The notes beneath the pieces are model-generated. The model searched no databases. It had not been told where the DNA came from and saw only the letters and a program-made list of their open reading frames with translations. The position numbers and the translations under genes are program-made. From assembly GCA_028717245.1 (NCBI GenBank), contig JAQUOD010000005.1, positions 18,637-82,636 of the forward strand: DNA of 64,000 nucleotides, written 5' to 3'. Shown here in pieces: positions 3,554 to 54,644 of this stretch. The DNA is from Candidatus Omnitrophota bacterium (lineage in GTDB: Bacteria > Omnitrophota > Gorgyraeia > Gygaellales > Profunditerraquicolaceae). Each line of letters begins with the position of its first letter. The stretch's first letter is position 1.

Positions 3554-4204
3554 CTATAACCCAAACCTTTCTCTTACTTTAGTTAGGCTGGCCACCTTCA
3601 CTGCCGCTGTTAATATGTCTCTTTCTCTTAATGTAGTTGAGGATTCCGGGATAATGACGCCGTGCAGCCGCCTGATGGCCACAACCAAAAATTCTCCGGG
3701 GATATTGATATCCTGTATGGTCTTGCCTATCAGGTTATCTTTGGCTTCTATCTCGATAACCCCCAGTTCTTTAGTCTCAATGAGGTAACTGGAAAAGCGG
3801 CTCTCGATGATTTTGTCCCTGAGCATCGCGGCAAACAAGATTGTTCCGCTGATAATCTCAAGGCCCAATGCGGCATAGATATGCGCGCGCTGGGGGTCAT
3901 ATACGCGGGCGATAACCTTGGGGACCTTGAAGATTTTTTTGGCTGCCTGCGCGGAGATTAAATTGGTATTGTCGCCGTTAGTTACCGCACAGAAGGCATC
4001 CGCCTTTTCAATGCCCGCTTGTTTTAGCAGGCTTAAAGAAAAACCATTGCCTACCAGAGTTACTCCGTTGAAAGTATCGCCAAGACGGTCAAAAGACGCC
4101 TGGCTCTTATCAATCACGACTACGTCGTGCCCTTCTGCTGATAAGAGTTTGGCTAATTCCGAACCTACTCTGCCGCAACCTACTATTATCACATACATAA
4201 TCAA
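3554..4204 (-). CDS. trkA: potassium transporter peripheral NAD-binding subunit TrkA (second paralog)
   Basis: It has the motif IIVGCGRVG, a TrkA_N plus TrkA_C architecture, and is 216 aa. Confidence 0.85.
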   Translation of the reverse strand: MIMYVIIVGCGRVGSELAKLLSAEGHDVVVIDKSQASFDRLGDTFNGVTLVGNGFSLSLLKQAGIEKADAFCAVTNGDNTNLISAQAAKKIFKVPKVIARVYDPQRAHIYAALGLEIISGTILFAAMLRDKIIESRFSSYLIETKELGVIEIEAKDNLIGKTIQDINIPGEFLVVAIRRLHGVIIPESSTTLRERDILTAAVKVASLTKVRERFGL

Positions 4205-4304: not shown

Positions 4305-4652
4305 TTATCCTCTGGCTATTTCCACTAATTTCTTAAATGCCTGGGTGTCTTTTACTGCCAGATCCGCCAAAACTTTTCTGTCCAAACCCACCTTGGCTTT
4401 TTTTAGGCCCTGCATAAAACGGCTGTAGGTAATGCCTGCGCTGCGGCAGGCGGCATTGATGCGCGCGATCCATAACCTGCGGAATTCTCTTTTTTTGACC
4501 CGCCTATCGCGATAGGCATACACCAAGGCATGCAGGAGCGCGCGGCGCGCCTGCTGGTATTGTTTACTGCGGTCCCCCCAAAAGCCCTTGGCCTTCTTTA
4601 AGGCCCTCTTCTTCCTTCTCCTTGTTGCTACGCTGTGTTTGATTTTCGCCAT
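4305..4652 (-). CDS. rplT: 50S ribosomal protein L20
   Basis: The sequence [26 protein letters not shown]...VYAYRDRR is canonical L20. Confidence 0.95.
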
Positions 4653-4681
4653 AATATTACTCCTTTATAGTATTCCGTTTT

Positions 4682-4741
4682 GTATCAAAGTATCACGTGT
4701 CAGAGTGTCAAAGGAAAACTTTGATACTTGACACCTTGACA
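4682..4741. repeat. GTATCAAAG/GTGTCAAAG direct + inverted hairpin element (rplT-rpmI spacer)
   Basis: GTATCAAAGTATCACGTGTCAGAGTGTCAAAG is followed by loop GAAAA and then CTTTGATACTTGACACCTTGACAC. Confidence 0.85.
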
Positions 4742-4942
4742 CTAACCGTATGGTAACATCCTTTTGATATACTTGATATCTTTCTTTCCTCCCACAATCC
4801 TTGCGCGCCTTAAGGAACGGATCCTCTTGGTGTCCTTGCTGGTCAAAAGATGGCTCTTGCCGCAAGGCGAATATTTGATTTTACCCTTCTTGGTCAGATG
4901 CAATCTTTTCGCTACGCCTTTTTTGGTTTTCAATTTTGGCAT
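4742..4942 (-). CDS. rpmI: 50S ribosomal protein L35
   Basis: The sequence MPKLKTKKGVAKRLHLTKKGKI is canonical L35, 66 aa. Confidence 0.95.
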   Translation of the reverse strand: MPKLKTKKGVAKRLHLTKKGKIKYSPCGKSHLLTSKDTKRIRSLRRARIVGGKKDIKYIKRMLPYG

Positions 4943-4995
4943 TTTACCTCACCCCAATCGTCGTTATTAATCTATTAATGAACCCTCTGCCTTGT

Positions 4996-5511
4996 TTATT
5001 TCGGGCCGGCAATGAAATATATAACCCTGCCTTCTAACATAGGCTCTTTTTCTACCTGCCCGTCGTTCTGTAATTCCAGAATAAATTTATCGATAACCTT
5101 TCGGCCTATATCCAGATGCTCCATCTGCCTGCCGCGGAAGAACATGCTCACCTTGACCTTGTCTTTTTTCTTCAGGAAACTGATGGCATGTTTTACTTTT
5201 ATCTGGCAATCGTGCTCGTCGATATTAGGCTTAAGGCGGATCTCTTTTATGCGGGACTGGTGCTGGTGCTTCTTGGCCTCGCGTTCTTTCTTCTCCTGGT
5301 CGTATTTAAATTTAGTAAAATCGATTACCCGGCATACCGGAGGGCTGGCCGCAGGCGCAACCTCAACTAAGTCTAACTCGTGTTGATTTGCTATCTCCAG
5401 GGCCTGCTGAATAGGGACTACTCCCAACTGGTTACCGTCTGGCCCCACCAGGCGCACTTCTGGTACGCGTATTCTTTCGTTGGTGCGGATAAACTTTTTT
5501 ATCGTAACCAC
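4996..5511 (-). CDS. infC: translation initiation factor IF-3
   Basis: It shows IF-3 N- and C-domain motifs (RVPEVRLVGPDG...ALEIA...LDLVEV; KEIRLKPNIDEHD). It has a GTG start as read by the ORF track, consistent with non-ATG IF3 starts. Confidence 0.9.
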   Translation of the reverse strand: MVTIKKFIRTNERIRVPEVRLVGPDGNQLGVVPIQQALEIANQHELDLVEVAPAASPPVCRVIDFTKFKYDQEKKEREAKKHQHQSRIKEIRLKPNIDEHDCQIKVKHAISFLKKKDKVKVSMFFRGRQMEHLDIGRKVIDKFILELQNDGQVEKEPMLEGRVIYFIAGPK

Positions 5512-5521
5512 CTCCTTTTGG

Positions 5522-5598
5522 AGTTTGTTGAGTTCTTTGAGTTTGTTGAGTTAGTTGAGTTAACTCTATGAACTCTACAAACTCTATAAACTCAATGA
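5522..5598. repeat. NNNTTGAGT x4 / AACTCTNNN x4 hairpin element (infC-thrS spacer; inverted arm reaches thrS stop)
   Basis: TTGTTGAGT, TCTTTGAGT, TTGTTGAGT and TAGTTGAGT are followed by AACTCTATG, AACTCTACA, AACTCTATA and AACTCAATG. Confidence 0.85.
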
Positions 5599-7316
5599 AC
5601 TTTATTTTCTATTTCCTGCCTTATCTGTTTTACAAATTCTTCTATAGGCTTTGCCCCTAAGTCACCCTTGCCTCTTTGGCGCACGGCAACGGTCCCGTTT
5701 ATCTCCTCGCGCTCGCCCACAATCAGGATATAAGGAACCTTTGCTAATTCTGCCTGGCGTATCTTTTTGTTCAGAGTCTCGTTACGCTCATCCACCTCAA
5801 ATCTTATATGAGATTTTTCTAATTCGGGTTTAATCTTGCCCCTGATATACCCCTCTAATGAATCTTTTACCGGGATAACCATGACTTGCGTGGGGGCTAG
5901 CCACAGAGGAAACGCACCCTTATAGTGTTCTACCAAAGCGCCGATAAAACGCTCAAGGCTGCCCAAGAGCACGCGGTGCAACATTATAGGCTGTTTTTCT
6001 TTTCCTTGAGAGTCCACATAGGTAAGATTAAATCTTTTGGGGAGCGCGAAATCGCATTGAATAGTAGCGCATTGCCATTGGCGCTTCAGGGCGTCCTTTA
6101 ATTTTATATCAATCTTCGGCCCATAAAATGCGCCCTCTCCCGCATTTACCGTATAGGTTAAGCCTTTTTCTTTTAATGCCGCCTCCAACGCCTCGGTGGC
6201 CAGCTGCCAGTCTTCTTCTGAGCCGATATATTTTTCCGGACGCGTGCTTAACTCAATCCCCACGTCACTAAAACCGAAGACCTTCATCGTATCAAAGACA
6301 AATTCTATAATCATCTGTATTTCCTGCACCAGTTGTTCGGGTAAACAAAATATGTGCGCATCGTCCTGGGTAAAGCCACGCACCCGAAGCAGGCCGTGGA
6401 GGACCCCTGTCTTTTCATGGCGATAAACCGTGCCCAGTTCAAATAACCGTATAGGCAGGTCTTTATAACTGCGTATCCTGGATTTATAAATCAGGATATG
6501 GCCAGGGCAGTTCATCGGCTTTAAAACAAACTCCCGGTTTTCGATTTTTAAGATGTACATGTTCTCTTTGTAATATTCATAGTGGCCGGAGGTCTTCCAG
6601 AGCTCTGCCTGCATAATATGCGGGGTAATCACTATCTGATAGCCGCGGCGCAGATGCTCCTGCTTTTCGTAATCCTCGATTATCGTCCGCAGTAGCGCGC
6701 CCTTGGGATGATAAAAGACCAGCCCTGCCCCTGCCTCTTCATGATAGATATCAAATAATTCCATTGCCGGCCCCAGCTTCCTGTGGTCGCGCAACTTTGC
6801 CTCTTCTAAATTTTTTAAATATTCTTCTAATTTTTGCTTGGTTTCAAAACAAGTCCCGTAAATCCTCTGCAGCATCGGATTTGTCTCAATCCCGTGCCAA
6901 TAAGATCCGGCAACAGAGAGCAATTTAAAGGCCTGGATTTTGCCGGTGGATGCCAGATGCGGCCCGCGGCATAAGTCTATAAAATCTTTGCCTGTCTTGT
7001 AGATGGAGGCTGTCTCCCCGGGGAGCGCCTGGATAAGTTCTATTTTATAATCCTCTTTTAATTTTTTGAATAAGGCGAGCGCCTCTTTTTTGGAGAGCTC
7101 TTCTCTGATAAAAGGCTCATCCTTAGCGATTATTGCGCGCATCTTTTTTTCTATCTTTTCTAAATCCTCGTCGGTAAATGGCTCTTTCTTATCAAAGTCA
7201 TAGTAAAAGCCGTCTTCGATAGAAGGGCCGATGCCCAGCTTCGCCTGCGGCCAGAGCTCTTTTACCGCCTGAGCCATAATGTGGGAACACGAATGTCTTA
7301 AGGTATCTAAATTCAT
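5592..7316 (-). CDS. thrS: threonine--tRNA ligase
   Basis: This 574-aa protein has a class II aaRS core with ThrRS editing/second-additional-domain HxxxH (HSCSHIMAQA) and a C-terminal anticodon-binding domain. It lies in the conserved thrS-infC-rpmI-rplT neighbourhood. Confidence 0.93.
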   Translation of the reverse strand: MNLDTLRHSCSHIMAQAVKELWPQAKLGIGPSIEDGFYYDFDKKEPFTDEDLEKIEKKMRAIIAKDEPFIREELSKKEALALFKKLKEDYKIELIQALPGETASIYKTGKDFIDLCRGPHLASTGKIQAFKLLSVAGSYWHGIETNPMLQRIYGTCFETKQKLEEYLKNLEEAKLRDHRKLGPAMELFDIYHEEAGAGLVFYHPKGALLRTIIEDYEKQEHLRRGYQIVITPHIMQAELWKTSGHYEYYKENMYILKIENREFVLKPMNCPGHILIYKSRIRSYKDLPIRLFELGTVYRHEKTGVLHGLLRVRGFTQDDAHIFCLPEQLVQEIQMIIEFVFDTMKVFGFSDVGIELSTRPEKYIGSEEDWQLATEALEAALKEKGLTYTVNAGEGAFYGPKIDIKLKDALKRQWQCATIQCDFALPKRFNLTYVDSQGKEKQPIMLHRVLLGSLERFIGALVEHYKGAFPLWLAPTQVMVIPVKDSLEGYIRGKIKPELEKSHIRFEVDERNETLNKKIRQAELAKVPYILIVGEREEINGTVAVRQRGKGDLGAKPIEEFVKQIRQEIENKVH

Positions 7317-7317
7317 C

Positions 7318-7394
7318 GTCGTTAATCGTTATTCGTTAATCGTTATTAGATGGCTAACTTATCCATTAACGATTAACTATTAACCAATAACTAA
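7318..7394. repeat. CGTTAAT/CGTTATT x4 + ATTAACG-type x4 hairpin element abutting thrS start codon
   Basis: CGTTAAT, CGTTATT, CGTTAAT and CGTTATT are followed by loop AGATGGCTAACTTATCC and then ATTAACG, ATTAACT, ATTAACC and AATAACT. The element begins 1 nt from the thrS ATG on the minus strand. Confidence 0.85.
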
Positions 7395-7396
7395 AA

Positions 7397-7471
7397 TGGG
7401 CGCTACAGGACTTGAACCTGTGGCCTTTTCCATGTCAAGGAAACGCTCTAAACCAACTGAGCTAAGCGCCC
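7397..7471 (-). tRNA. tRNA-Val (anticodon GAC)
   Basis: The revcomp folds as a cloverleaf with a 7-bp acceptor stem GGGCGCT/AGCGCCC. The anticodon stem is TTTCC/GGAAA with loop TTGACAT, the T-arm is ACAGG-TTCAAGT-CCTGT, and the total is 75 nt. Confidence 0.85.
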
Positions 7472-7484
7472 GATAAATTCAAAG

Positions 7485-7567
7485 TGGGCAAGGAGGGAGT
7501 CGGACCCTCATGACCTTGCGGCCAATGGCTTTTAAGGCCATCGTGTAAGCCATTCCACCACTTGCCC
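7485..7567 (-). tRNA. tRNA-Leu (anticodon TAA), long variable arm
   Basis: The revcomp is GGGCAAG...ATGGC-CTTAAAA-GCCAT with a long variable arm, T-arm GAGGG-TCCGACT-CCCTC and acceptor CTTGCCC+A, 83 nt. Confidence 0.85.
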
Positions 7568-7573
7568 AAATTT

Positions 7574-8242
7574 TCATGATGGTTCGCAATAAACAGTTGT
7601 GCTTTTATCCCAACCTGTATACGAACTCAAGCACTGTTGAGCCAAATTTATCTTCCTCTCAAGCCCAAAGCAATGTTTATAATAACACTGTTTAGCAATT
7701 TCTCTTGCCGCCATTTTACCGTATTTTAATACCCAAAAATTATTTCTGCTGTTATGAATCTTACCGAAAACTTCTAATAACCCCGCTATTGTGTCGCTTA
7801 ACCAGTGAACAAATTCTTCGGAGCCAGAATATATCCTCAGGCTCCATTGTTCTCCTTTATTGGTCGGGTGTACCCAGCGACGGATACATCCGTCACCGTC
7901 AATTACTCCTCTTAAAAAATCAACGAAATATTGATTTGGTATTTCTAGAGCACCCAATGTCAGAGATTTATTTTGTGTTAGCCCAATCGATAAAAGGAAA
8001 TTGTATAAATTTTTGTTTCCTACCTGAATATGAAAACATCTCTGATTTTTACTATTATATTTGATACCAATTTTGTTCTTGAGCCCGGTTGCGTCTTTAA
8101 TCGCCTGAAGGAATTGAGAATCTTTAGAGGTTATGTCTATATGTCTCCCATCCGGACATAAACACCCATCAGTTGCAATCAAACCTACCAAATACCAAAG
8201 ATTTGAACCTTCAATTTTCAATTCTTTTCGCTTATTCGGCAT
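7574..8242 (-). CDS. free-standing LAGLIDADG homing endonuclease (two-motif, monomeric type)
   Basis: This 222-aa ORF has two LAGLIDADG motifs (LWYLVGLIATDGCL and FLRGVIDGDGCI). It fills the whole spacer between tRNA-Cys and tRNA-Leu with gaps of 6-7 nt. Confidence 0.8.
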   Translation of the reverse strand: MPNKRKELKIEGSNLWYLVGLIATDGCLCPDGRHIDITSKDSQFLQAIKDATGLKNKIGIKYNSKNQRCFHIQVGNKNLYNFLLSIGLTQNKSLTLGALEIPNQYFVDFLRGVIDGDGCIRRWVHPTNKGEQWSLRIYSGSEEFVHWLSDTIAGLLEVFGKIHNSRNNFWVLKYGKMAAREIAKQCYYKHCFGLERKINLAQQCLSSYTGWDKSTTVYCEPS

Positions 8243-8249
8243 GTAATTT

Positions 8250-8324
8250 TGGAGGCGCGGAGCGGATTCGAACCGCTGAATAACTGTTTTGCAGACAGTT
8301 GCCTTGCCACTTGGCTACCGCGCC
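8250..8324 (-). tRNA. tRNA-Cys (anticodon GCA), CCA encoded
   Basis: The revcomp is GGCGCGG-TA-GCCAAGTGGCAAGGC-A-ACTGT-CTGCAAA-ACAGT-...GGTTCGAATCC...CCGCGCC-T-CCA. Confidence 0.85.
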
Positions 8325-8328
8325 AACA

Positions 8329-8874
8329 TTATCTCAAAATTTTTTTGGCCTCTTTAACTATCGTCTCAACCTCTGCCAAACAACCCGCACCCACTCTACC
8401 GCAGGCAAGCCTGCCCTTTATCGGCTCGACAAATCTAAACCCTAATGATTTTAATTTCTGAATATTAGCCTGGGTAATGCGATTCTTATACATATTCTCG
8501 TTCATCGCCGGGCAAATCAATATCGGCGCGCGGGTTGCGCAACAGACGCAGGTCAATAAATCGTCGCATATCCCCGAGGCGATCTTGGCAATAATATTCG
8601 CCGTTGCCGGCGCAACTAAAACAAGATCCGCCTTCTCAGCCAAAGCCACGTGCTCTATCTCCCAAATCTCTGGCTCCTCAAATAAGCCCCGATAGACTTT
8701 ATTCCCGGAGAGCCCCTGAAAGAGCGCGGGCCGGATAAACTCCTCTGCCTCCTGCGTCATGACGACCGTAACCGAGAACCCGCCGCTTTTGAGCCGCCGG
8801 AGAATATCGCAGGCCTTATAAATAGCAATGCTTGCCGTTACCCCTAAAACAACGCTCTTCTCTTTATCCGCCAT
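8329..8874 (-). CDS. coaC: phosphopantothenoylcysteine decarboxylase (flavoprotein, CoaC half only)
   Basis: This 181-aa flavoprotein fold has the N-terminal GVTASIAIYK and PAMNENMY motifs characteristic of the CoaC domain of CoaBC. Confidence 0.8.
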   Translation of the reverse strand: MADKEKSVVLGVTASIAIYKACDILRRLKSGGFSVTVVMTQEAEEFIRPALFQGLSGNKVYRGLFEEPEIWEIEHVALAEKADLVLVAPATANIIAKIASGICDDLLTCVCCATRAPILICPAMNENMYKNRITQANIQKLKSLGFRFVEPIKGRLACGRVGAGCLAEVETIVKEAKKILR

Positions 8875-17965: not shown

Positions 17966-22013
<4,048 letters not shown>

Positions 22014-22175: not shown

Positions 22176-25100
22176 ATGTATACGCGTAACGAAAAAATTA
22201 TCCCGGTTTATATTGAGGATGAGGTCAAGGACTCTTATTTAAATTATGCCATGAGCGTCATCGTCGGCCGCGCCCTGCCCGATATCCGCGACGGCTTAAA
22301 GCCGGTGCACAGGCGCATTCTTTATGCCATGCAGGAGCTTAATCTTGACCACTCTAAGCCTTATAAGAAATGCGCGCGTATCGTCGGCGAGGTCCTGGGT
22401 AAATACCATCCCCACGGCGATGTCGCGGTTTATGATGCCTTAGTCAGGATGGCCCAGGGTTTTTCCCTGCGCTATCCTTTGGTAGACGGGCAGGGAAATT
22501 TTGGATCGGTCGACGGGGATGCAGCTGCCGCGATGAGATATTGCGTCACCGGAGATACTCTGATTGTTACAGATAAAGGACTGCAAAGAATAGACAAACT
22601 TCCTCATCATTCCAAAACAGATTTTCGGGTACTTTCATTAAATAATAAGATAAATCATGTTTCAAAATGGTTTGATTCCGGAGAGCATTTAACTAAAAAA
22701 ATTACTACCTTTAGAGGTTTTAGCTTATGCGGGAGCCGGAATCATCCTATTTTAACGTGGCAACGTAATGGAACAAAGCCAAAATTAGTTTGGACACTAT
22801 TGAATAATGTAGAAAATGGCGATTTTGTCGTAGTCAGTAGGAGCGGTTCGTTATTCCCTTCAAGGGAACCTTTATTAAAAAAATTTTATCCAGAACTTCG
22901 AAACAGAAGGCAGGAGCATAAGCTTCCTCGCGCTATGAATGTAGATCTGGCTTTTATTTTGGGAGCGCTAATTGCAGAAGGTTCTATAAGCAGGGAACAA
23001 ATTGGATTCTGTAATGGGGATAAAGAGTTTCTACGGGAATTTAAATCGTGTTTCCAGCGAGTATTCCCCGATTGCAGGCTGCATGAATTTGTAAGAAAAC
23101 CGTTGAGTTATGGGAAAAAGAAATGTACTTATTTAGAAATTCATTCAATGCATGTTATAGATTTTTTGAAAAATCTAGGGTTACGTCAGTTGCGAGCTTA
23201 TGATAAAACCATTCCAGATATAATTTTTTCTTCCTCGAAAAAATCGGTTGCCGCGTTTATAAAAGGTTATGCAGAGGGAGATGGTAGTATTTGTGTTGGC
23301 AAAAGAAACCCTGATATCAGCTTGATATCAACCAGCGGAAAATTGATTCAAGGTTTACAGGTTTTCCTCCTAATGTTTGGCATTGATTCTTCGCATAGAT
23401 TTCATAAGCAAAAAAACTATTTTAGGTTGTTTATTAGAGGCCGCAACAATCTCGATTTATTTAAAAATCAAATAAATTTTGCTACTAGGAAAAGTCGTGA
23501 AAGGTTGATAGATATTTGTAATCGCAATAAAACTGATTGGGTTATGTCCAAGACAGATTGTATTCCCTACATCGCCGACTATCTTCGTAAAAAAAGCACA
23601 CGGTGCAAGAGAAAATATTGGGGGAACATAGAATGGCTAAAAAAACACAACATCGATAGGTACCCAAAAATAGAAAAATACTGGCCCAGGCTAAGAAGGG
23701 TTCTTGATAAAGACGATGTTAGTTTGTTTGAGGGTTTGATAAAAAATAGATATATCTTTGATAAAATTGTTTCGGTAGAAGATGCTGGTAAGAAAAGAGT
23801 CTATTCAATTAAAGTGGATAGCCCGTGCCACTCATTTGTATCCAATGGATTCATAAGTCATAATACTGAAGCGCGCCTGGCTGCTATTTCCGATGAGATA
23901 CTCGCGGATATTGATAAGGACACCGTAAATTTCGGGCCCAATTTTGACTCCTCCCTCAAAGAGCCGCTTTTATTGCCCGCGGCCTTGCCTAATCTGTTAG
24001 TGAACGGCTCAAGCGGTATAGCTGTGGGTATGGCTACCAATATCCCCCCGCACAATTTGAATGAAGTGGCCGATGCCATTATCTATCTATTAGATCATCC
24101 GGAAACCGAAATCAAGGACCTGATGCGTTATATCAAGGGTCCGGATTTTCCGACGGGCGGCGTAATCTGCGGCAGGAACGGTATCAAAGATGCCTATACC
24201 ACAGGAAAAGGTAAGCTCACCGTGCGCGCGCGGGCCACTATCGAGCGCCAGAAGAACGGCAAGGACCTGATTATAATTACTGAGATTCCCTACCAGGTGC
24301 AGAAATCCGCGTTAATTGAGGCCGCCGCCGCTTTGGTGGACGATAAAAAAATAGAGGGTATTTCTGACATCCGCGATGAATCCGATAAAGACGGGATGCG
24401 TATCGCGGTAGAACTCAAGCGCGACGTGGAAGCGCAGATTGTCTTGAATCAGCTCTTTAAACATACGCAACTGGAGACTACCTTCGGGATTATTATGCTG
24501 GCGCTGGTAGACAACAGGCCGCGGGTTTTGACGTTACGTCAGATGTTGGAATATTATATCGAGCACCGCAAGATTATCATCCGGCGCAGGACGCAATTTG
24601 AATTAGATAAGGCCTTAAAGAGGGCGCATATCTTAGAGGGCTTAAAGATTGCCCTGAAATACATCGACCGGATTATCAAGGTCATCAAGACCTCCAAGAA
24701 TACGGAGAATGCCAAAGAGCGCCTGATGAAGGAATTCGGCCTTTCTGATGTGCAGGCGCAGGCGATATTAGAAATGCAGTTGCAGCGCCTCACTGCTTTA
24801 GAGCGCGATAAGATTGACGCCGAATATTTAGAGCTCCTGAAAAAAATTGAACTGTGTAAAGCCATACTCGCCTCGGAGAAGAAAATTGAAGGCATCATCA
24901 AAGAGGATCTGGAGGCCTTAAAGAAAAAATACGGCGATGAACGCAGGACCGACCTGGTCGCCGAAGCAGAAGAATTAGAGGTGGAAGACCTTATCGCCGA
25001 AGAAGACGTAGTGGTGACAATAAGCCACGGCGGTTATATCAAGCGCTTGCCGGTGAGCGCCTACCGTAAACAGAAACGCGGGGGCACAGGGGCAACGGGC

Positions 25101-25931
25101 GCAGAAGTCAAAGAAGAGGATTTTATAGAACATCTTTTTGTGGCCTCGACCAAAGATTATTTATTGACCTTCGCTGATAAGGGCCAGGTGCATTGGCTCA
25201 AGGTTTATGAAATCCCGCAGGCCAGCCGCACTTCCAAAGGCAAGGCCATCATTAATCTTTTACAGATGGAAGCAGGCTCTAAAGTCAGCTCGACCATACC
25301 GGTGAAGGAATTCTCCGCTGACCAATACCTGGTAATGGTCACCAAGTGCGGCCAGATTAAAAAGACAAGGCTTGACGCCTACGGTAATCCGCGCAAGGGC
25401 GGGATTATCGGCATTAGCCTGGATAAGGGCGATGAGCTGATCGGCGTAGAGTTAACCGACGGAAAACAGGAGCTGCTTATCGGTACCCGCCAGGGTAAGG
25501 CCATAAGATTTTCTGAGAGCAAGGTGCGGGATATGGGCAGGCAGGCAGGAGGCGTACGCGCCATCTCTTTAGCCAAGAAAGACGAAGTGATTGCCATGGT
25601 TTTAGCCCAGAAGGATACCACAGTATTAACCGTTACGGAATTAGGCTTTGCCAAACGTACACCCATTCAAGAATACCGCCTGACCAGCCGCGGCGGCAAA
25701 GGCATTATTAATATAAAAGTCACCAGTAAGAACGGCGAGGCAGTAAGTTTAAAGACTGTCAGCGACAACGACGAGCTGATGGTTATTACACAGAACGGCA
25801 TGTTCTTACGTTGTGCGGTCAAAGATATCCGCACTACCGGCAGGTCTGCCCAGGGAGTGCGGCTGATTAAGCTACAGGAGAAAGACCGCGTTTCTTGCGT
25901 GGCGCCGGTGATTGCAGAAGAGGAAGAATAA
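22176..25931 (+). CDS. gyrA: DNA gyrase subunit A, intein-containing precursor (about 810-aa extein plus 441-aa intein)
   Basis: The GyrA N-terminus is present. AAMRY (catalytic Tyr at extein residue 122) is interrupted by CVTGDTLIV...NGFISHN and resumes at [11 protein letters not shown]. Confidence 0.95.
22542..23864 (+). mobile_element. GyrA intein with LAGLIDADG homing endonuclease domain
   Basis: It is inserted directly after the catalytic Tyr. Splice-junction blocks resemble the mycobacterial GyrA intein (…ITNGFVSHN). LAGLIDADG motifs are [14 protein letters not shown] and [14 protein letters not shown]. It is 1323 nt and in frame. Confidence 0.85.
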
Positions 25932-52462: not shown

Positions 52463-52539
52463 GGGCGGTTAGTTCAGCTGGTTAGAACGTCTCTCTTACA
52501 CAGAGAAGGTCAGGGGTTCAAGTCCTCTACCGCCCACCA
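52463..52539 (+). tRNA. tRNA-Val (anticodon TAC), CCA encoded
   Basis: The sequence is GGGCGGT-TA-GTTC-AGCTGGTTA-GAAC-G-TCTCT-CTTACAC-AGAGA-AGGTC-AGGGG-TTCAAGT-CCTCT-ACCGCCC-A-CCA. Confidence 0.85.
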
Positions 52540-52550
52540 AAATAAAAAAT

Positions 52551-53522
52551 ATGCACCTTCTCGAACGTACAAACAGGTTTAAAAGAATAGAGAGAAGATT
52601 TGATTCTCCCATTGAAGATTTGCTTTATCAGATGCATTGGCTGGAAGATATGAAGCATAGGGATATTGCCCTAAATTTGCATGCGCCGAGAGCAACAATA
52701 ACAAGATGGTTTCGCCGTTTGCAGGTGCCAACTCAGAGTTGCCGCAGATTTACTGATATGAATCTAACAAGTTGGCTATATAAAATTGGAAAATTAAAAA
52801 AGAAACCCCGCTATAGCGGTCCAGACAAAAGGCTCCAGCGGACAAGACAGGGATTAAATGTAGATTTCTTCAAGAAATGGTCAGTAGAGATGGCTTATGT
52901 ATTGGGATATTTCGCTGCCGATGGGTGCATGTTTATTAATCCGCGGGGGTCAAAATATATTTCATTTACTTCTTGTGACCGCGAAATCTTGCAGAAAGTC
53001 AAGCGGATGTTGGGCTCTGAGCATAAGTTTAGTGTAAAAAATAGGCAGAATAGAAACTGGAAAGATGCTTTTACCTTACAAATTGGTTCCAAAGAGATGT
53101 ATCAGGATTTAATAAAAAAAGGTTTTATGCCTAAAAAAGCATCTAGATTTAAATTGCCGGCCGTGCCTAAAAAATATATGAGGCACTTTATTAGAGGGTA
53201 TTTTGATGGTGATGGCAGCGTTACTTATGGGTATTTTAAAAGAAAAGATAGAAATAATAAGATGACTTCATACCTTTTAACTTGTTTATCTTCGGCAAAT
53301 TTACGTTTTTTAAGGGGAATCTCCAAGGTTTTGAAAGAAAATATAGGTATTAACGGAGGATATATAGATAAAAAAGGTGGCCACCTTGCTTATTCTAAGC
53401 TTGACAGCATTAAGTTATTCCAGTATATTTATACAAACGTTAATAAGGGGCAATACTTAGAAAGAAAATATAAGAAGTTTAGGAAGGCATTCGAAATTAA
53501 TAGGGGCTGTGGCCTAGTCTAG
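52551..53522 (+). CDS. free-standing LAGLIDADG homing endonuclease (second copy, two-motif type)
   Basis: It is 323 aa with the motifs AYVLGYFAADGCMF and FIRGYFDGDGSV. It starts 11 nt after tRNA-Val, and its last codons overlap the 5' end of tRNA-Asp. Confidence 0.8.
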   Translation: MHLLERTNRFKRIERRFDSPIEDLLYQMHWLEDMKHRDIALNLHAPRATITRWFRRLQVPTQSCRRFTDMNLTSWLYKIGKLKKKPRYSGPDKRLQRTRQGLNVDFFKKWSVEMAYVLGYFAADGCMFINPRGSKYISFTSCDREILQKVKRMLGSEHKFSVKNRQNRNWKDAFTLQIGSKEMYQDLIKKGFMPKKASRFKLPAVPKKYMRHFIRGYFDGDGSVTYGYFKRKDRNNKMTSYLLTCLSSANLRFLRGISKVLKENIGINGGYIDKKGGHLAYSKLDSIKLFQYIYTNVNKGQYLERKYKKFRKAFEINRGCGLV

Positions 53523-53578
53523 TTCATGGCGTCTCCCTGTCACGGAGAAGATCGCGGGTGCGAATCCCGTCAGCCCCG
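53502..53578 (+). tRNA. tRNA-Asp (anticodon GTC), enlarged D-loop
   Basis: The sequence is GGGGCTG...TCTCC-CTGTCAC-GGAGA-AGATC-GCGGG-TGCGAAT-CCCGT-CAGCCCC-G. The D-arm carries about 3 extra nt (TAGTCTAGTTCA). Confidence 0.75.
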
Positions 53579-53594
53579 CTTTTCGTTTCAGTAT

Positions 53595-53817: not shown

Positions 53818-53960
53818 TTGCATTTGCTATCGCGTATGGTATAATTGTTTTAAAAGCAATAGTAGATAAGTAAGTGGTCTGGGAATATACAAAAGTATTC
53901 CCGGAGGATTTTCGATGGTCGGGCCGCCATCTTGCATGATAATGCGGGATGGCGTTTTTT
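53818..53960 (+). promoter_or_regulatory. promoter (TTGCAT-16-TGgTATAAT) plus leader with mutually exclusive antiterminator/terminator hairpins
   Basis: The leader contains GGGAATA...TATTCCC, then GATGG-TCGGGCC-GCCATC overlapping CGCCATC-...-GATGGCG-TTTTTT. This lies 34 nt upstream of ATG 53994. Confidence 0.55.
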
Positions 53961-53993: not shown

Positions 53994-54644
53994 ATGTTTA
54001 AGGCATTACTATTTGTTGGTATAGCGTTTATTTTCACGGTTATGTTTGTTACTCCTATACGAAACTATATGAATAATCTTTTCTTGAGAGATAAATCTCA
54101 GCTAAAAGAAGAACAGATTATCGGAACGGTTTCAGGATACAGCCCGCGCGTAGAAGAGATACAAAGGATTTTAAAAAACGCTCATTTTGATCCCGGCCCT
54201 GCGGATGGAGTAATGGGTAGCCGCACCCGAAAGGCAATCAGGGAATTCCAGGAAGAAAAAGGTTTCTGGCCGAACGGCAGAGTGGATTCGAAAACCTGGC
54301 TTGAGTTAAATCGGGAAAAAGAAACGTTTAAGGAAGAAGCAAATGCGCAACCTTTGGCCTTGCTTTCCGAAGAGTATCCCCGTGACGTAAAATCTAAGGA
54401 AGAAATTGCAAAAATTAGAGAGCCCCAGGAGAAAATAGCCAAAGTAGCGTTTCCCCAAGACAGAAAAACACAAATTCAAATGGCCTTACAAAAAGCTAAT
54501 TTTTATAAAGGGAAGATTGACGGGAAAATAGGCCCGCAAACAAAAAAAGCGATCAAGGCATTTCAAAAGGCCAAAGGATTAAGGGCGGACGGTGCCGTAG
54601 GCGCTCAAACCTGGGCTGAGCTGAATAAGTATTTGAAAGAGTAA
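53994..54644 (+). CDS. secreted/membrane-anchored protein with two peptidoglycan-binding (PG_binding_1-like) domains
   Basis: It has an N-terminal TM/signal segment and two repeats of the DG..G..T..AI..FQ...GL..DG.VG..TW..L pattern. It is 216 aa. Confidence 0.7.
   Translation: MFKALLFVGIAFIFTVMFVTPIRNYMNNLFLRDKSQLKEEQIIGTVSGYSPRVEEIQRILKNAHFDPGPADGVMGSRTRKAIREFQEEKGFWPNGRVDSKTWLELNREKETFKEEANAQPLALLSEEYPRDVKSKEEIAKIREPQEKIAKVAFPQDRKTQIQMALQKANFYKGKIDGKIGPQTKKAIKAFQKAKGLRADGAVGAQTWAELNKYLKE

Follow-up and report, generated by a model that had tools for sequence, protein, structure and literature searches.

A free-standing LAGLIDADG homing endonuclease gene of Omnitrophota that probably moves together with a tRNA-Leu gene

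Gene organization at the locus

The gene described here lies in a stretch of 64 000 nucleotides (nt) from a Candidatus Omnitrophota bacterium (assembly GCA_028717245.1, contig JAQUOD010000005.1, forward-strand positions 18 637 to 82 636), which we call the window and number from its first letter. Open reading frame (ORF) calling and Pfam identified a free-standing LAGLIDADG homing endonuclease gene (HEG) at 7574-8242 on the minus strand, which starts with ATG, encodes 222 amino acids (aa) with two motifs (D25 and D117) and is the sole long ORF in the gap between two tRNA genes. Upstream of it, tRNA-Cys(GCA) (8250-8324, minus strand) forms the boundary of the insertion; its end reads ...CCGCGCC-T-CCA, a discriminator U followed by an encoded CCA. 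Seven nucleotides, AAATTAC (8243-8249, minus strand), separate this CCA end from the ATG, and six, AAATTT (7568-7573, minus strand), separate the TGA stop from position +1 of tRNA-Leu(UAA) (7484/7485-7567, minus strand), which begins GGGCAAG directly thereafter and is of a type common among relatives except for a T at position 20. The minus strand continues with tRNA-Val(GAC) (7397-7471), which lies outside the mobile block defined below, and thrS (5592-7316), the conserved downstream gene that anchored our species sample. On the other side, the gene for a coaC-like flavoprotein (8329-8874, minus strand) ends 4 nt before tRNA-Cys. The tRNA genes were called by ARAGORN and Rfam, thrS and the flavoprotein gene by ORF calling and the two junctions from the sequence itself. 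The G+C fraction of the HEG is 0.36-0.39, compared with 0.45-0.53 in the flanks.

This arrangement had been proposed in an earlier reading of the letters and translations without database searches (the sequence-only reading), and its elements hold: the 222-aa ORF with its two motifs (they read LVGLIATDG, with D25, and LRGVIDGDG, with D117), the spacing of 7 and 6 nt to the neighbouring tRNAs and the same-strand order of tRNA-Cys, tRNA-Leu, tRNA-Val and thrS. The ATG start is supported by an N-terminus that is conserved from the first ATG across 120 close homologues, so the 7-nt 5′ junction is real. We also agree that this is not an intron ORF. Both flanking tRNAs are complete according to ARAGORN, and no Rfam model of a group I or group II intron matches around the HEG at gathering score or at E<=1; together with the two short junctions, this rules out an intron-encoded HEG. 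Association with an intein is ruled out because Pfam shows the LAGLIDADG domains alone in the 222-aa protein, unlike the gyrA and gyrB products of the same window, which do match Pfam Intein_splicing.

The encoded protein

The family assignment, made first from the motifs, is borne out by a match to Pfam PF14528 (LAGLIDADG_3; E=2.7e-9, 37.6 bits against a cutoff of 22.5). In a profile of 70 diverse homologues, residues D25, G26, R111, G112, D115 and G118 are invariant and D117 is conserved in at least 90%, while both LAGLIDADG motifs are conserved at 95% or more in the 120 close homologues. An AlphaFold model (pLDDT 93.1, pTM 0.90) predicts a fold of two alpha-beta-beta-alpha-beta-beta-alpha repeats with the elements in the expected order, as a model rather than a solved structure. 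The best match in the PDB is I-Tsp061I (2dch; hmmsearch E=2.9e-15, Foldseek E=1.4e-12, TM 0.68-0.73); the top Foldseek matches are I-Tsp061I, I-AniI, E-DreI and I-DmoI, each with probability 1.00, and further ones are WhiA (3hyi, 8dy9) and the bI3 maturase. Pfam finds no additional helix-turn-helix (HTH) domain. We infer that the protein is a monomeric, two-motif LAGLIDADG enzyme with an intact active site and predicted catalytic activity, and that it is probably intact and active.

A homology search returned 819 database proteins, so the ORF is not a chance one. The best 120 of the 819 are 60-100% identical to the window protein and 202-259 aa long (mostly 219-222 aa), and are labelled Candidatus Omnitrophica or Omnitrophota where a name is given. 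The family as such is not a new one: in NCBI its members already carry the label 'LAGLIDADG family homing endonuclease'.

Occupied, decayed and empty sites

Seven homologues on long contigs (among them L001, L004, L006, L007, L088 and L089; L-numbers label related loci or genomes) were chosen by the HEG itself and share the order gmk, rpoZ, coaC, tRNA-Cys, HEG, tRNA-Leu, tRNA-Val, thrS, infC. In L007 this order is rearranged to Cys-Val-...-HEG-Leu, with the HEG still joined to tRNA-Leu. Constant length and synteny suggested a phylum-wide, vertically inherited core gene, a first impression that proved misleading because a sample chosen by the HEG is unable to reveal empty sites. The species sample was instead built from the closest relatives by the window ThrS, with one genome per species, and comprised 80 loci, most of them labelled Omnitrophota, with ThrS 72-82% identical to that of the window. 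Each locus was annotated for tRNAs and HEG homologues, and 68 were informative in that the interval between tRNA-Cys and tRNA-Leu was visible.

The cluster of tRNA-Cys, tRNA-Leu, tRNA-Val and thrS is kept in nearly all 80 loci, and the spacer between the first two occurs in three states. It holds a full-length HEG in 15 of the 68 informative loci (22%; one copy is cut by a contig end) and a degraded copy in three (4%), and is empty in 50 (74%). The degraded copies comprise one with an internal deletion of about residues 17-101 (L010), one with a frameshift (L024) and one of which the last 45 residues alone are left (L042). Empty spacers measure 8-817 nt, and 14 of them are no longer than 15 nt. 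With 50 of the 68 species empty, the core-gene interpretation is rejected. Occupied sites are scattered over the ThrS tree, and occupancy varies between sister species, the HEG being absent from L052 but present in L061, absent from L018 but present in L046/L049, absent from L039 but present in L060/L057, and absent from L076/L072 but present in L059. This pattern of presence and absence is the classic signature of a mobile HEG in gain, decay and loss. In L008, a near relative of the window, the contig begins 28 nt upstream of tRNA-Leu (L008 1-28); the break falls at the polymorphic HEG site, as would be expected of a population mixed for occupancy.

Linkage to the tRNA-Leu gene

The comparison of L052 with L061, both single-cell genomes, delimits what has moved. 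They form the closest pair of an occupied and an empty locus: up to the end of tRNA-Cys, and from tRNA-Val on into thrS, their identity is 96-98%, and the whole stretch between these two tRNAs differs. The empty locus, L052, has a 79-nt spacer, a tRNA-Leu of type A starting GGGCAAGTGGTGG and a 66-nt spacer; the occupied locus, L061, has the CCA, the HEG and a tRNA-Leu of type B starting GCCGGGGTGGCGA, with a compensated acceptor stem. The tRNA-Val genes of occupied and empty sisters are 99-100% identical. Across the sample, type A tRNA-Leu stands at 44 of the 50 empty sites (40 of these 44 with the same first 25 nt) and type B or C at 13 of the 15 occupied ones, so that type A and non-A number 2 and 13 at occupied and 44 and 6 at empty sites (Fisher p=1.4e-7). 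Six empty sites carry a type B or C tRNA-Leu, one of them (L036) with a marginal 15-residue HEG tail, which fits a loss of the HEG after invasion.

The association was controlled for phylogeny by pairing each occupied locus with its nearest empty one and each empty locus with its nearest empty one, at a median ThrS distance of 0.20 in both groups. Median tRNA-Leu identity is 0.78 in occupied-empty pairs and 0.93 in empty-empty pairs (p=5e-4), and tRNA-Cys shows a smaller difference (0.82 and 0.86, p=0.005), while tRNA-Val shows none (0.945 and 0.93, p=0.91). From this control, the mobile block consists of the HEG, tRNA-Leu and sometimes tRNA-Cys, and ends before tRNA-Val. The same limits are seen between the window and L088, which holds the nearest relative of the window HEG. 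Nucleotide identity is 88% in the HEG, 100% (83/83) in tRNA-Leu and 90% in tRNA-Cys, compared with 63% in gmk, 66% in rpoZ, 74% in coaC, 77% in thrS and 76% in tRNA-Val; for codons of conserved residues, third-position identity is 0.77 within the HEG and 0.50-0.61 within the genes on either side.

Other loci point to further exchange. L057 and L060 have ThrS proteins that are 91% identical and HEGs that are just 68% identical, and L039 combines the thrS of L060 with the tRNA-Leu of L057, from which we conclude that mosaic recombination occurs at the locus. We therefore consider it likely that the HEG is a horizontally moving, free-standing element rather than a core gene, and that it moves with tRNA-Leu. 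The sequence-only reading had offered, as one of two options, a selfish element that homes into the inter-tRNA spacer; this option is now strongly supported by the comparison of related genomes (15 occupied, 3 degraded and 50 empty sites among 68), by the remnants and by the block shared with tRNA-Leu.

The spacer can hold other genes. In L050 it contains an unrelated 235-aa ORF (4319-5026), a DUF6036/DUF2204 nucleotidyltransferase that ends 3 nt before a tRNA-Leu of the HEG-associated type C and may be a different cargo at the same hotspot. In L089/L090, where the cluster includes the LAGLIDADG HEG, an ORF for a 91-aa GIY-YIG domain (3912-4187) follows shortly after tRNA-Val.

Selection and alternative explanations

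Intact HEG copies are under purifying selection. The ratio of nonsynonymous to synonymous substitution rates (dN/dS) is 0.08-0.17 in intact HEG pairs (for the window copy, 0.10 against L088 and 0.08 against L064), and that of thrS is 0.10 in the sole pair for which it could be estimated. Synonymous divergence (dS) of the HEG (0.29-1.05) is below that of the adjacent thrS (0.55 to saturated), a contrast that is semi-quantitative since NG86 dS of thrS is saturated in most pairs. Distances between HEGs are weakly correlated with those between ThrS proteins (Mantel r=0.22).

Such selection would also be shown by a domesticated LAGLIDADG protein, inherited vertically and serving the host as a regulator of the WhiA kind or in the maturation or processing of RNA from the tRNA operon. 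A dN/dS of about 0.1 would suit this explanation, as would a constant length of 219-222 aa and 60-89% identity among more than 100 homologues, always at the same locus, and the Foldseek similarity to WhiA and the bI3 maturase. However, the gene is missing from 50 of 68 related species, sisters included, decayed copies exist, and the HEG is more alike between genomes than its flanks are. Both catalytic aspartates are retained and no HTH domain has been added. Moreover, a HEG maintained through repeated transfer should be under purifying selection as well; the homing-cycle model (Goddard and Burt) predicts such selection together with a sporadic distribution. We regard domestication as very improbable.

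An alternative closer to the mobile-element interpretation is that the window HEG is an inactive relic, recently fixed and no longer cutting or moving, in which disabling mutations have not yet accrued. HEGs pass through such a stage, as the remnants in L010, L024 and L042 illustrate; the linked tRNA-Leu is nearly of the common type, and the sample holds no close empty-site sister of the window genome. Against this stand the intact ORF with all of its conserved residues, its low dN/dS relative to both L088 and L064, and the block shared with L088 at an identity far above that of the flanks, which implies recent movement. The relic explanation is improbable on this evidence, if less so than domestication.

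A mobile HEG that carries tRNA-Leu with it, the interpretation that we prefer, also has several observations to contend with. The window tRNA-Leu differs from the common empty-site type at one position in the first 25 nt, A20T, and because this is the sole early difference, the idea that the linked allele resists cleavage rests on very few positions for the window copy. Position 20 is T instead of A in each of the three occupied loci with a type-A tRNA-Leu (the window, L028 and L038), and few empty sites share this variant; an attempt to locate the target site from such allele differences gave no more than a suggestion, given that the whole tRNA differs in the other occupied loci. HEG and tRNA-Leu distances correlate weakly (Mantel r=0.15), by which tight co-evolution of the two is rejected: the linkage is real yet often reshuffled by recombination. 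Causation could also run in reverse, with the enzyme targeting genomes that already bear a variant tRNA-Leu, although this is less parsimonious for the pairs L052/L061 and window/L088. All comparison genomes are metagenome-assembled genomes, single-cell genomes or metagenome contigs, so assembly chimeras at the polymorphic site may affect individual loci. The saturation of thrS dS noted above belongs here too, as does the status of cleavage activity as predicted and of the target site as putative. Our search for a vector between species found none, the relatives on viral contigs being at most 34% identical over most of their length. Finally, four loci (L015, L046, L049 and L059) carry a full-length HEG with no in-frame stop before tRNA-Leu, the frame continuing for 86-129 nt after the start of that tRNA gene and ending within it or downstream of it; L046/L049 have a TAATAA that is shifted from the reading frame by one base. 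These stopless copies could represent early decay, or their translation could be tolerated only on unprocessed transcripts.

A phage vector was considered and rejected, as the viral relatives are distant and none adjoins a tRNA. In a negative control, none of 80 distant viral-contig LAGLIDADG loci lay within 250 nt of a tRNA.

A possible homing mechanism

The two junctions of the HEG behave differently across related loci. The gap from the stop to tRNA-Leu is 0-19 nt, most often 6, in 19 of 25 loci, the frame entering the tRNA in the other six, whereas the gap from tRNA-Cys to the ATG ranges over 5-994 nt. This constancy on one side, and the HEG of L007 that stays on tRNA-Leu despite the rearrangement around it, suggest that the element is anchored on the downstream tRNA, which is probably also its target. 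In the mechanism that we propose, the enzyme would act on chromosomes without the HEG, cutting within the 5′ portion of the resident, common tRNA-Leu gene or next to it. Repair of the break from a HEG-bearing copy would then copy in the HEG together with its linked, uncut tRNA-Leu allele, the conserved tRNA-Cys/coaC and tRNA-Val/thrS sequences serving as homology arms. That the element's own allele would escape cutting is suggested by the allele association alone, and the chance that the cut site lies within the tRNA-Leu gene itself seems to us about even. Its flush placement is the nearest that a free-standing HEG gets to a target conserved across species without interrupting an essential tRNA. 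As the HEG has no promoter or terminator of its own in the window, it would most likely be expressed by read-through of the same-strand array gmk-rpoZ-coaC-tRNA-thrS. RNase P acting at tRNA-Leu would set the 3′ end of the message, as a by-product of the element's position rather than a dedicated mechanism.

Further LAGLIDADG lineages at tRNA genes

A second free-standing LAGLIDADG HEG lies in the window at 52551-53522 on the plus strand (323 aa, with an N-terminal HTH-like extension; LAGLIDADG_3 E=5.8e-19). It starts 11 nt after the end, at 52539, of tRNA-Val(TAC) (52463-52539, plus strand) and overlaps the first 20 nt (53503-53522) of tRNA-Asp(GTC) (53503-53579, plus strand), an allele linked to this HEG and starting GGGGCTGTGGCCTAGTCTAG; both tRNAs were called by ARAGORN. 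The sequence-only reading had this ORF flanked by tRNAs and unrelated to the first. It does stand between tRNA-Val(tac) and tRNA-Asp, although it runs into the latter instead of stopping short of it, and it is a distant homologue of the first HEG (31% identity over 135 aa, E=4e-18).

The occupancy of this second site was surveyed in 80 metagenome contigs, not de-replicated, that were collected via the upstream gene for V-ATPase subunit K (ntpK). The order ntpK/tRNA-Val(tac)/tRNA-Asp(gtc) is conserved among them, and 7 of the 57 informative contigs contain the HEG; in one more it is truncated by the contig end. A tRNA-Asp allele starting GGGGCT(G/A)TGGCCTAGTCT accompanies 6 of 8 occupied loci (the window counted) and 1 of 50 empty ones, while tRNA-Val(tac) alleles do not vary with occupancy. 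In L091-L093, from other genomes, the sequence on the far side of the second HEG is different, yet the gene still adjoins tRNA-Asp. The TAG that stops the window's second HEG (53520-53522) falls within the tRNA-Asp D-arm. It is part of the sequence TCTAGTT, a variant shared by the HEG-linked tRNA-Asp genes of the window, L135 and L148/L149; most other tRNA-Asp alleles read TCTGGTT or CCTGGTT.

A third LAGLIDADG lineage, 28-37% identical to both window HEGs, occurs in relatives between coaC and tRNA-Cys and ends at or inside tRNA-Cys (L011 389-1015, L022 4868-5638 and L036 4466-5095); remnants are found in L039 (5463-5618) and L056 (5028-5432). In L022, 5 nt separate the coaC stop from the start of this HEG, whose frame spans the whole tRNA-Cys gene. 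One rule covers all three lineages, in that the HEG terminates at the 5′ edge of a particular tRNA: Leu-UAA for the first, Asp-GUC for the second and Cys-GCA for the third. We tentatively suggest, with slightly less than even confidence, that several Omnitrophota LAGLIDADG lineages are natural gene drives on these essential tRNA genes. They would park at the 5′ edge, cut the resident allele and replace it with a linked, uncut one, using the neighbouring tRNAs as homology arms.

Transcription and tRNA processing

The sequence-only reading had also raised the possibility of mitochondrial-style tRNA punctuation, with the HEG message released from a polycistronic tRNA precursor. In its full form, this explanation has a near-leaderless 5′ end made by processing at tRNA-Cys and a 3′ end made by RNase P at tRNA-Leu, and the processing would be required for expression. 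Much of the local layout is suggestive of it. In the window, gaps of just 7 and 6 nt separate the ORF from tRNA-Cys and tRNA-Leu, which share its strand, and no promoter- or terminator-like site occurs between the tRNAs; the neighbours are all on the same strand with tiny gaps; and 5′ junctions are similarly tight (5-15 nt) in 12 related loci, as are 3′ junctions in most. Since there is no room for a promoter or terminator and the same-strand neighbours are so closely spaced, read-through transcription with RNase P cleavage 6 nt past the stop is very likely, as judged from the sequence. A promoter or terminator belonging to the HEG is rejected on the same grounds. Consensus scans found neither at the junctions and gave counts at background level (11 found against 8.5 expected, and 7 against 7.1), which makes them uninformative beyond the lack of room.

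That processing should be a functional requirement is another matter. The 5′ junction is not conserved, the distance from tRNA-Cys to the ATG being 58-994 nt in nine loci. The stop lies inside or beyond a tRNA in the four stopless relatives, in the second window HEG and in the L022 lineage, where RNase P cleavage would leave a non-stop mRNA. The position of the HEG is more simply explained by an insertion that spares an essential tRNA. The 5′ junction has no Shine-Dalgarno sequence, which might be taken as a sign of leaderless translation; this is not diagnostic, as about half of the genome's genes also lack one (in the window, 20 of 43 genes have a Shine-Dalgarno-like motif and 23, thrS among them, do not).

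Precedents for transcripts that join a message to a tRNA exist in Escherichia coli, and the tRNA-tufB operon is one. In another, secG-leuU, RNase P separates the mRNA from the tRNA and the cut of the co-transcript leads to rapid mRNA decay (PMC2241853), so it is already known that bacterial RNase P can cut a transcript shared by an mRNA and a tRNA. The HEG would resemble these cases in having a protein message and a tRNA on one transcript with RNase P acting at the tRNA 5′ end, and differs in that they concern host genes with promoters and terminators of their own and involve no selfish element. The cut in secG-leuU destabilizes the mRNA rather than activating it (PMC2241853). For a nuclease that may be toxic, being weakly expressed would do no harm.

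We would argue from the gene arrangement that tRNA processing is incidental to HEG expression rather than a dedicated function. Punctuation is plausible as an event and unsupported as a function, and in its full form, with processing required, we think it unlikely. It is compatible with a mobile element that moves with tRNA-Leu; what is in doubt is the functional requirement alone. In L001 (3762-4000) and L004 (3659-4000), 239-342 nt of non-coding sequence with obvious inverted repeats run from tRNA-Cys to the HEG start, and could be a promoter, a terminator or the remnant of another insertion.

Other elements of the window

Two inteins add to the two HEGs, giving the 64-kb window four elements of the homing endonuclease type. 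That of gyrA (22176-25931, plus strand, 1251 aa) contains a LAGLIDADG_3 domain according to Pfam, with the insert at about residues 134-563, and was first flagged by tblastn with the second HEG at 22938-23300. That of gyrB (18243-22013, plus strand, 1256 aa) spans about residues 464-886 (Intein_splicing E=4e-21). Downstream of the second HEG, a motif resembling the nhaA-I riboswitch (53875-53932, plus strand; Rfam RF03057, 47.3 bits against a gathering score of 37) precedes a 216-aa ORF (53994-54644) that is unlike a Na+/H+ antiporter. The interval between tRNA-Val and thrS (7317-7396) is AT-rich, with repeated TTAATCGTTA-like units that form a long hairpin; in Rfam it is matched by microRNA models alone, at chance level, and it may be a thrS leader or regulatory hairpin.

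Discussion

The closest functional analogue of the Omnitrophota HEG is SegB of phage T4, a free-standing GIY-YIG HEG in the phage tRNA cluster whose 27-bp site contains the T-psi-C motif of a tRNA and which spreads itself plus neighbouring tRNA genes (PMC2330249). Both are free-standing HEGs among tRNA genes that move with a neighbouring tRNA. SegB belongs to a different nuclease family and spreads between phages in co-infection, whereas the gene described here is of the LAGLIDADG family, resides in a bacterial chromosome and is associated with essential single tRNAs. It further differs from SegB in being distributed over numerous species within a single phylum and in lying flush with the 5′ edge of a particular tRNA. 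For SegB, both cutting and target have been proven; here they are predicted.

In fold, size and monomeric two-motif architecture, with an acidic residue in each motif, the protein resembles the archaeal enzymes I-Tsp061I (2dch) and I-DmoI, which differ in being encoded in rRNA introns and share about 20% identity with it. WhiA likewise places a LAGLIDADG fold in a bacterial chromosomal gene. It no longer has the catalytic residues, possesses an HTH domain at its C-terminus and, as far as is known, is kept throughout its clades; the HEG, in contrast, keeps both aspartates, has no HTH and is sporadic, being absent from about 74% of relatives.

Transfer RNA genes serve as conserved landing sites for other HEGs too. 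Bacterial tRNAs can contain HEG-bearing group I introns, with LAGLIDADG enzymes in cyanobacterial tRNA-Arg(CCU) and HNH enzymes in Bacteroidota tRNA-Leu(UAA) (PMC13011429). Those genes sit in a self-splicing intron in the anticodon loop, whereas the Omnitrophota HEG stands beside an uninterrupted tRNA, which owes its integrity to position and not to splicing. Free-standing LAGLIDADG ORFs near tRNAs, often intergenic, are common in fungal mitochondria and are found in algal organelles as well (PMC5626475, PMC6506933). They are similar in being free-standing, in varying in presence and absence and in occupying compact, tRNA-flanked genomes, and different in that tRNA punctuation is the normal mode of processing there. 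Our literature search, incomplete in its coverage, found nothing on homing endonucleases at tRNA genes in Omnitrophota. To our knowledge, no systematic link of one HEG lineage to one tRNA allele has been described for the organellar genes.

Bacterial homing endonucleases are known mainly from introns, inteins and phage genomes, and the HEG of the window is chromosomal and has neither an intron nor an intein around it. What would distinguish this system is intron-less homing by LAGLIDADG enzymes of a bacterial chromosome, with tRNA genes as both anchor and cargo. It also offers a concrete bacterial case for the fate of a protein message squeezed between tRNAs. If our interpretation is correct, a selfish nuclease uses the conservation of tRNAs both as a target and as homology arms, which would explain otherwise puzzling jumps in tRNA-Leu and tRNA-Asp sequence between sister species. 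It would also provide a family of hundreds of natural, compact meganucleases of about 220 aa, with targets that may be guessed from the empty-site alleles. Should the more tentative gene-drive reading hold as well, these genes would form a chromosomal, intron-free counterpart of T4 SegB and would drive the turnover of tRNA alleles, including compensated changes in the acceptor stem, across the phylum.

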